In this document: piece by piece, positions 30,815-31,152 of the stretch | How positions within the stretch are numbered: the first letter of the stretch is position 1 | Layout: each line of letters begins with the position of its first letter | DNA from: a virus | Lineage: Duplodnaviria; Caudoviricetes | Length of the DNA stretch: 64,000 bases | IMG/VR virus record: IMGVR_UViG_2902759955_000002 | Location: 1 to 64,000 of that record | Strand: one strand, 5' to 3' | Notes under the pieces: generated by a model | The model's input: only the letters and a program-made list of their open reading frames with translations | What the model was told of the DNA's origin: nothing | Database searches by the model: none | Position numbers and translations under genes: made by a program

Positions 30815-30846
30815 CAAAAAAAGAGGGAGGACCGAAGTCCTCCCTC
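30815..30846 (-). terminator. Intrinsic terminator
   Basis: GAGGGAGGAC-TTCG-GTCCTCCCTC followed by T7. Confidence 0.9.
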
Positions 30847-31130
30847 GCAAGGTCAGAAAGTAGCGAGCGCACACGTAGCGCATTCGCATGGATGAAGCCC
30901 GGCGCGCCCAAGGAAAGGAAAACACGCCGCACCTCCAACTACGCTCGCTTCAAGCTACTTCCAAGGTGACTCCGACAACTCCCCTCGTCAGAGTTCCTGC
31001 AAGAATGTGACTCTTGACAGGCAAGCCGGGTGTCACCAAGCACCCTTTGCACCGCACGCGCGACTCGCCTGGGATCTGTGAACCCGCCCAAGCAATCCGG
31101 GGCATCACTCCCGAACAAACCATAAGCACA
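30847..31130 (-). ncRNA. Candidate structured non-coding RNA (~285 nt), family unknown
   Basis: Intergenic with nested helices; flanked by a promoter-like palindrome and a terminator. Confidence 0.5.
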
Positions 31131-31133
31131 TTG

Positions 31134-31152
31134 GGTAAATATTTACCTGCTC
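31134..31152. promoter_or_regulatory. Palindromic middle-promoter-like element
   Basis: GGTAAATATTTACC is a perfect 14-bp palindrome; 17/18 match to the reverse complement of 23516-23533. Confidence 0.5.

Follow-up and report, generated by a model that had tools for sequence, protein, structure and literature searches.

A putative conserved structured non-coding RNA between the SH3DP and DNA polymerase genes of a nucleus-forming jumbo phage

The non-coding gap and its predicted RNA

The stretch of DNA analysed here, 64,000 nucleotides (nt) at positions 1 to 64,000 of IMG/VR virus record IMGVR_UViG_2902759955_000002 (hereafter the window), belongs to the genome of a phiKZ-like, nucleus-forming jumbo phage and encodes both the nuclear-shell protein chimallin and the tubulin PhuZ. 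Between its gene for SH3DP and that for a divergent family B DNA polymerase lies a non-coding gap of 437 bases on the minus strand of the window, the strand to which all coordinates of the element described below refer (Table 1). In phiKZ, according to the cited passage, the polymerase is split, and gp50, the homologue of this gene product, makes up its C-terminal subunit (PMC13648687). The gap very probably holds a conserved structured non-coding RNA (ncRNA), predicted to extend from near a palindromic AT-rich box to an intrinsic terminator, an element put forward in an earlier reading of this DNA (the original prediction) as a stand-alone RNA with a promoter and a terminator of its own.

The region as a whole folds at -146.9 kcal/mol (z -3.47), a stability reached by none of 100 shuffled sequences. 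No conserved open reading frame (ORF) was found in the gap, whose short ORFs have no ribosome-binding sites and vary from one relative to another, and six-frame peptides of the window gap searched against the gaps of relatives gave a best E value of only 0.13; a coding reading was dropped on these two grounds. A reading of the 5' motif as similar to transfer-messenger RNA (tmRNA) or transfer RNA (tRNA) was likewise set aside, because an ARAGORN scan of the gap for tRNA and tmRNA returned nothing and Rfam was negative. The Rfam scan suggested in the original prediction gave no family at gathering thresholds (Rfam 15; no match in the window, none in 15 related loci), and at E ≤ 10 only four sub-threshold matches appeared, of which three touch or surround the terminator hairpin and the fourth falls within the SH3DP gene. 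The DNA of the gap showed no similarity to 50,697 phage records and only chance-level matches of 23-40 nt to 400 host-family genomes. On the phage contig itself the RNA has no paralogues, and only terminator-like hairpins recur.

We found no description in the literature of an RNA before the polymerase gene; the coordinate tables of PMC10914365 and PMC11512511 may hold the miniature phiKZ unit described below. The RNA family, in the slot between the genes for SH3DP and the polymerase C-terminal subunit, is uncatalogued. GOLLD and ROOL, the large, ornate RNAs associated with phages, are both in Rfam. The window RNA resembles them in being large, intricately folded, carried by a phage, and of unknown function, but it is much smaller, belongs to another phage group and gene context, and has no Rfam match (gathering or E ≤ 10).

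The leader hairpin of the predicted RNA has a counterpart, CUGG-AAGUGAUGCG-CCAG, at the same place in three relatives (L109, L110, and L112), with one stem pair altered on both sides as judged by eye. Further along is the conserved core, whose consensus reads P1 - GGNUUGC - P2 - GAAC - P3 with a GGGGA loop. An inner stem named in the original prediction, 30996-31004 with 31012-21 (CCUGUCAAGA/UCUUGCAGG, with a 1-nt bulge), is well supported on the 313-nt RNA for which pairing probabilities were computed: its CAAGA/UCUUG portion pairs with a probability of 0.88-0.91, and its outer part is conserved in the alignment. The helix proposed to close this second domain, 30965-70 with 31032-37 (GGUGAC/GUCACC), is complementary as described but reaches a pairing probability of only 0.04 and finds no support.

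For the first domain, the helix originally drawn as 30858-64 with 30954-60 (AAGUAGC/GCUACUU; pairing probabilities of 0.54-0.56) is conserved and extends to 30962-54 with 30864-56. In this domain-closing helix (A9 helix 5), seven of the nine pairs are changed on both sides and 87% of cells are paired, with a pairing probability of 0.55; the hairpin at 30929-30900, which bears the pyrimidine-rich loop, lies inside the domain so closed. A further helix, 30862-69 with 30942-49 (AGCGAGCG/CGCUCGCU), could not form as written together with the preceding one, because both use 30862-64. Its arms are complementary, but in that register its probability is 0.02-0.03, and the alignment supports instead a 4-bp helix, 30949-46 with 30869-66, whose register differs from that of the 8-bp helix first drawn.

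The terminator is present where the original prediction had placed a strong UUCG hairpin on the minus strand. Its stem (30846..30823) has 10 pairs, seven of them G-C, capped by the UUCG loop and followed by a T7 tail, and it is the strongest of six terminator-like sites in 28000-34000, a region for which shuffles yield 4.9 +/- 2.3 sites overall. A hairpin with a T-run stands at the equivalent position in every relative examined, and the stem covaries (A9 helix 9).

Table 1. Positions of the predicted RNA, its parts, and flanking or related features. Coordinates are those of the window unless a locus is named.
Feature	Position	Strand	Basis or remarks
SH3DP gene	31161..31592	(-)	PF20287, E 2.4e-25; stop codon 31161-63
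Palindromic AT-rich box GGTAAATATTTACC	31134..31147	(-)	exact palindrome; promoter-like, early-type by analogy
TTATG	31121..31125	(-)	matches phiKZ late-promoter T(-3)ATG(+1); G31121 possible start
Predicted RNA, ~300-315 nt	30816..31126	(-)	box-to-terminator geometry, no conserved ORF, fold z
Leader hairpin CGGG-AGUGAUGC-CCCG	31098..31113	(-)	local fold
Conserved core	30974..31061	(-)	covariance model R2 match and covariation
P1, GGGUG/CACCC	31045-31028	(-)	core; followed by linker GGCUUGC
P2	31021-30996	(-)	core
P3, loop GGGGAG	30994-30969	(-)	core
Domain-closing helix, 5' arm	30954..30962	(-)	pairs with 30856-30864; A9 helix 5
Pyrimidine-loop hairpin CGGCGUG/CGCGCCG, loop UUUUCCUUUCCUUGG (30922-30908)	30900..30929	(-)	local fold -22.6 kcal/mol
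3' arms	30856..30869	(-)	30856-30864 with 30954-30962; 30866-30869 with 30946-30949 (A9 helices 5, 6)
Intrinsic terminator GAGGGAGGAC-UUCG-GUCCUCCCUC, then U7	30816..30846	(-)	sequence, relatives, covariation
Second hairpin, then TTTATGCCG (30789-83) and TTTTTTAC (30772-66)	30766..30811	(-)	conserved in relatives' alignment
Divergent family B DNA polymerase gene	28489..30723	(-)	PF20286, E 1.4e-237
Chimallin (nuclear-shell protein) gene	21261..23204	(-)	phrog_4795, 5.6e-92
Hairpin/T-run with (T)TATGCC(G/C), first four sites	1571-1577(-), 8583-8589(+), 21110-21116(-), 30783-30789(-)		
Hairpin/T-run with (T)TATGCC(G/C), other four sites	35095-35101(-), 45255-45261(-), 46830-46836(+), 49516-49530(+)		
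Extra post-SH3DP unit of relatives	L109 2918-3075, L110 2918-3085, L112 2918-3060, L115 2930-3075		missing from window

Relatives, covariation, and the extent of the family

Relatives of the polymerase were found in 297 phage records, the best being that of Burkholderia phage FLC9 (54%), and at a further 42 IMG/VR loci, 37 metagenome loci, and one genome locus. The SH3DP protein search returned 19 further proteins of 59-67% identity, two of them from Paraburkholderia-named sources, and, within the same genus, a homologue was present in one genome out of 212 others; at eight IMG/VR loci, SH3DP is 59-69% and the polymerase 57-77% identical. In the closer relatives the central part of the RNA aligns with that of the window. 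The 54 loci with both genes provide 39 distinct SH3DP-to-polymerase spacers, which measure at least 400 nt in 36 cases and 235, 307, and 3 nt in the others. In a distant clade, with polymerases of 33-35% identity, a distance of 14-100 nt is left between the end of the upstream gene and the polymerase gene.

The spacers have a layout in common, consisting of an AT-rich box, a TAATG about 10 nt further on, 300-465 nt of sequence, and a GC hairpin with a T-run, after which a conserved TTTATGCCG ... TTTTTTAY block precedes the polymerase start. The phiKZ spacer, 201 nt long, presents this layout in miniature, with a hairpin and TATG, a TTATTTTTAC box, TAATG, about 85 nt, and a terminator. Four closer relatives also carry, directly after SH3DP, an extra unit of ~130-150 nt that starts ..GTATATTGTGACAGAG.. 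and has its own terminator; a second small RNA may be encoded there.

A covariance model of the core, R2, was built from eight closer relatives with the window left out (95 positions, 23 pairs). Its top match in 232,551 bases is the window at 30974-31061(-), with 32.2 bits and an E value of 7.1e-07, and this is the only window match at E ≤ 1. Further R2 matches fall in the same slot, within the RNA's 5' domain, in L115, L040, L015, L023, L089, L025, L091, and L020 (E 8e-06 to 0.09), for a total of nine matches in 26 sources. The search gave no match in the FLC9-like clade (L002, L004, L008, L052, and L095), nor in L013, L016, L042, phiKZ, or nine other loci.

Covariation, which the original prediction had proposed as a check among related jumbo phages, is evident at both the level of the core and that of the whole unit. 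In a 17-sequence alignment of the core, which is fitted to the model and so leans towards it, 19 of 23 pairs have changed on both sides and 89.8% of cells are paired; the covariation score of 0.614 compares with at most 0.145 for slid partners and is reached by none of 500 shuffles. In a MAFFT alignment of the whole unit (window and seven relatives), 31 of 50 pairs are changed on both sides, against 6-17 with slid partners. Ten FLC9-like sequences, analysed with RNAalifold, yield a structure of 90 pairs, 27 of them compensatory, with 98.5% of cells paired, slid controls at 2-6, and none of 500 shuffles reaching the score; since this structure was derived from the same sequences on which it was tested, the comparison favours it, though not by the margin observed. 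For P1 and the C/U-loop hairpin, the MAFFT alignments were not in register and could not be used to count pairs. The possibility raised with the original prediction, that the region might have no conserved fold, is contradicted by the R2 match at E 7e-07 and by this covariation.

Judged by the model match, the compensatory helices, the shared slot and strand, and the terminator, the predicted window RNA is a member of the family found in the closer relatives. What it has in common with the FLC9-like RNAs (450 nt) and the phiKZ miniature unit is confined to synteny, the box, a loop motif, and the terminator, and MAFFT with RNAalifold over the distant lineages recovered the terminator alone.

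Promoter-like sites and the proposed transcription unit

The palindromic promoter-like element of the original prediction, GGTAAATATTTACC, is found exactly at its assigned place. Allowing up to three mismatches, the palindrome has two matches in the window, the other being at 23521-34, where 0.39 would be expected and where at least two occur in 7 of 100 shuffles. From this AT box to the terminator stem is 288 nt. Two relatives (L111 and L114) have a AGGTAAAWRTTWWC box ~22 nt past the SH3DP stop, and wider relatives have TTTTTTAY-type boxes at the equivalent place; on the phage contig, boxes of this kind also stand before the chimallin gene (23521-34) and, elsewhere, before a tRNA cluster. As described in the cited passages, early promoters of the phiKZ type are AT-rich boxes of ~10 nt centred near -10, and late promoters carry T(-3)ATG(+1) (PMC7598289); for phiKZ, TATATTAC is tabulated (PMC7058600). 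The AT box of the window closes with TTTAC, after which comes TTATG; at this latter site relatives carry TAATG, which does not fit TATG. A scan for sigma-70 promoters found no sites. By analogy with these promoters, the RNA probably has its own, early promoter at the AT box.

From the arrangement of box and terminator, we infer transcription of the RNA from its own 5' end, and we somewhat favour the view that it forms a transcription unit of its own. The block between the terminator and the polymerase gene (Table 1) probably serves as that gene's own promoter block. In four relatives (L107, L108, L113, and L089) the RNA and the polymerase gene are set apart by other DNA or genes, and in three (L109, L110, and L112) other DNA intervenes between the RNA and SH3DP; both arrangements argue against a purely cis role.

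Several further observations concern promoter-like sites in the surrounding DNA. Upstream of the chimallin gene, 23205-24494 is a 1.3-kb, ORF-free stretch of lower GC content that contains the near-copy of the box at 23521-23534, from which a transcript would give chimallin a 5' leader of ~320 nt. A third palindromic box, GTAAAAAATTAC, lies outside the window, in the region L096 2341-3021 (G000:C11:229840-230520), and is followed, on the minus strand, by ~670 non-coding bases with a T-arm-like GCGGGTTCGAATCCCGC and then by four tRNA genes (Tyr, Asn, Ser, and Gln); neither Rfam nor ARAGORN made a call in the ~670-base stretch. At several intergenic sites of the window (Table 1), a GC hairpin or T-run leads directly into (T)TATGCC(G/C), and these sites look like a terminator fused to a TATG-type promoter, as operon punctuation.

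Possible modes of action and wider context

Hairpin loops with runs of C and U are a recurrent feature of the family, occurring 28 times in 15 RNAs, against 7.5 in shuffles, and at least once in 14 of the 15. The window RNA has one clear C/U-rich apical loop, UUUUCCUUUCCUUGG, whose counterparts are UUUCCUCCUUGUUU in the FLC9-like clade, CCUCCUUA in L091, and CCUUG(G) or CCUCCUU in relatives. Within the subclade of the window, CCUUG(G) loops are present in all eight sequences (the window and seven of seven relatives), and the conserved set comprises one or two such hairpin loops per relative together with the GGGGA loop. In Staphylococcus aureus RNAIII and in RsaE/RoxS, C/U-rich hairpin loops pair with Shine-Dalgarno regions. 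The window RNA is likewise long and folded, with apical C/U-rich loops complementary to purine-rich ribosome-binding sites, but it differs from RNAs of this type in being encoded by a phage, in lacking an Rfam match, and in that its pairing with the chimallin site, the one candidate tested in depth, does not rise clearly above background.

Candidate targets were sought among ribosome-binding sites. Loops match AAACAAGG of the chimallin start regions in the FLC9-like clade, L016, and L040. In the window, the ribosome-binding site CAAGGAAAGGAG (46451-46474 +) is a 12-bp complement of the pyrimidine loop, with 11 Watson-Crick pairs and one G-U; few of the sites that rank high in a genome-wide scan lie, as this one does, directly upstream of a start codon. 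It serves a gene at 46475-46795 (+) for a protein of 106 amino acids (PHROG 3934/322) of unknown function. Separately, an exact 12-mer of the FLC9-clade loop, CCTCCTTGTTTC, occurs at window positions 735-746 (+), where the minus strand reads GAAACAAGGAGG and resembles a ribosome-binding site.

Taken as a whole, the gap may well contain the gene for a discrete, highly folded ncRNA of ~300 nt, expressed early as a separate unit and acting in trans through its loops. Transcription would start at the AT-rich box, a site similar to the early promoters of phiKZ-like phages, which are AT-rich and end in TAC; a box of this type also stands before the chimallin gene, and the RNA could accordingly be made early and in quantity. 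The unit would be separate from the polymerase mRNA, which would be served by the promoter block after the terminator. Acting in trans, the RNA would expose pyrimidine-rich hairpin loops (here UUUUCCUUUCCUUGG) that could pair with messages at purine-rich stretches resembling a Shine-Dalgarno sequence and thereby dampen their translation, a mechanism that we propose only tentatively from loop complementarity. Among the explanations considered, a trans regulator acting through its loops ranks as the most likely, followed by a cis leader or 3' untranslated region (UTR), a protein scaffold, and a replication primer.

A number of results weigh against this proposal, at the level of the targets, of the family, and of the transcription unit. 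The window loop pairs with its own chimallin ribosome-binding site at -12.7 kcal/mol, a value that 24-nt windows drawn at random from the phage genome place at only the 1.2% quantile, and pairs better with the sites of two other phages than with its own. Across 10 phages, own loop-to-site pairing averages -8.96 against -8.05 for cross pairing, a weak difference (permutation P 0.044). The GGGGA and UCCUU loops are both invariant and could pair with each other inside the RNA, in which case the pyrimidine loop would be structural and not a seed. Since neither the FLC9-like clade nor phiKZ is found by R2, synteny and architecture are the basis for homology across the whole set; a profile built with nhmmer from 14 distant 5' regions also missed the window RNA, its third-best match being the polymerase promoter box at E 4.7, and a hairpin model from the FLC9-like clade, R1, found L016 (E 0.005) and, weakly, L066 and L089, but neither the window RNA nor its loop hairpin. 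As for the transcription unit, the discrete, stand-alone ncRNA of the original prediction is borne out in its conserved fold, its intrinsic terminator, and an AT box where relatives have one. Its independence of the SH3DP gene is less clear: no terminator lies between the SH3DP stop (31161-63) and the AT box, so that read-through from upstream would also cover the RNA element, and the spacer of one relative, L107 (G411), has no AT box.

That read-through is compatible with a purely cis element, a structured leader or attenuator of the polymerase gene or a stabilising 3' UTR of the SH3DP operon, that would set the amount of read-through past the terminator into the polymerase gene and would have no role in trans, which we consider unlikely though the foremost alternative. 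In phiKZ itself a promoter-to-terminator unit (NC_004629 40377-40577), the miniature layout described above, stands before the phage's own polymerase gene, PHIKZ050. The cited passages further describe 17 candidate ncRNAs from 5'UTRs in phiKZ, short RNAs from premature termination (PMC10914365), and 11 small RNAs in 201phi2-1 (PMC11512511). These RNAs come from the same phage group and also have a phage promoter soon followed by an intrinsic terminator upstream of a gene; they were, however, filtered to <250 nt, with no covarying multi-helix fold reported in those passages, whereas the window RNA has a three-helix core in ~300 nt and its relatives reach 465 nt. A covarying structure of 300-465 nt far exceeds what an attenuator needs, the terminator is strong (10 bp and U7), the polymerase gene is provided, beyond it, with a conserved, probable promoter block of its own, and in at least the four lineages named above the RNA does not adjoin the polymerase gene at all. 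The region could also be a functionless spacer with chance stems, given that GC-rich sequence folds readily and that three relatives have fold z values near zero (L015 +1.0, L023 -0.6, and L025 -0.7); this is highly improbable in view of the model match and of compensatory changes far above slid and shuffled controls in three independent alignments.

Two further explanations give the RNA a protein or DNA partner. Protein sponges of the CsrB/RsmZ type carry many copies of one short motif, with a conserved copy number. The original prediction had proposed, from its recurrent CUUG, a sponge or scaffold with repeated protein-binding sites. In this reading a phage or host RNA-binding protein would bind repeated CUUG or CCUUGG motifs and the GGGGA loop. 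The repetition itself is real: CUUG is the commonest 4-mer, with eight copies in 338 nt where dinucleotide shuffles average 2.9 (standard deviation 1.6) and 35 of 5000 reach eight (P about 0.007), and where the minus strand of the window has 2.7 per kb. It is, however, peculiar to the window phage, with enrichment in none of 16 relatives at P<0.05, so that CUUG repeats do not hold up as conserved protein-binding sites, and relatives have only one or two of the CCUUG loops conserved in the subclade. Peaks of the phage protein ChmC in enhanced crosslinking and immunoprecipitation fall on unannotated intergenic stretches of PhiPA3, although the same cited passages give no known ChmC binding motif (PMC11077065). 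On balance we regard a sponge or scaffold as improbable.

Still less probable is a replication primer or origin RNA, by which an early folded transcript beside the polymerase gene would form an R-loop and be cut by the RNase H-clamp subunit to provide the first primer. ColE1 RNA II, of which this would be a phage analogue, is a folded primer transcript of a few hundred nt that is trimmed by RNase H. The window RNA shares with it the size, the fold, a replication context (the RNA lies within the replication module in most relatives), and an RNase H in the replication machinery, but ends at a strong intrinsic terminator, which should release it. According to the cited passages, chimalliviruses have no identified primase and one subunit of their polymerase is a protein with an RNase H domain; the authors suggest that replication may begin from RNA-DNA hybrids (PMC13648687, PMC13648698). 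Against a primer, the unit is only ~85 nt in phiKZ, and the cumulative GC skew of the 286-kb contig, itself weak, has its minimum at ~76 kb and its maximum at ~228 kb, with the locus at 96 kb.

In nucleus-forming jumbo phages, whose RNA biology has hardly been explored, transcription is kept apart from translation; a covarying RNA of 300-465 nt beside replication genes in many uncultured and cultured relatives is rare in phages. If translation were controlled through the pyrimidine loops, the RNA would be a global or timed regulator made by the phage, and if it had a role in replication, it would bear on how phages without a primase begin DNA synthesis. With coordinates, a core model, and conserved loops in hand, the element is sufficiently defined for knock-down or deletion in an experimentally accessible relative, for instance Burkholderia phage FLC9.

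The phage genome occupies its own contig of 286,074 bp (58% GC) inside a 7.68-Mb bacterial assembly, and this contig is the whole genome of the nucleus-forming jumbo phage, which is not integrated. A search of sequencing runs listed no RNA run containing the stretch; contigs of one run, which may be the source of this DNA itself, gave an identical copy, and those of a second gave one 38-nt piece. Related contigs of ~280 kb are found in assemblies source-named Paraburkholderia and, within the same genus, in one genome out of 212 others; such free phage contigs in bacterial isolate-type assemblies hint at a carrier state. Next to the polymerase subunit gene, a thioredoxin gene (28166-28492, minus strand; PF00085, 2.3e-33) overlaps its stop by 4 nt, which suggests translational coupling of the two. 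The T7 polymerase takes thioredoxin from its host for processivity, a possible parallel to the thioredoxin gene of the window.

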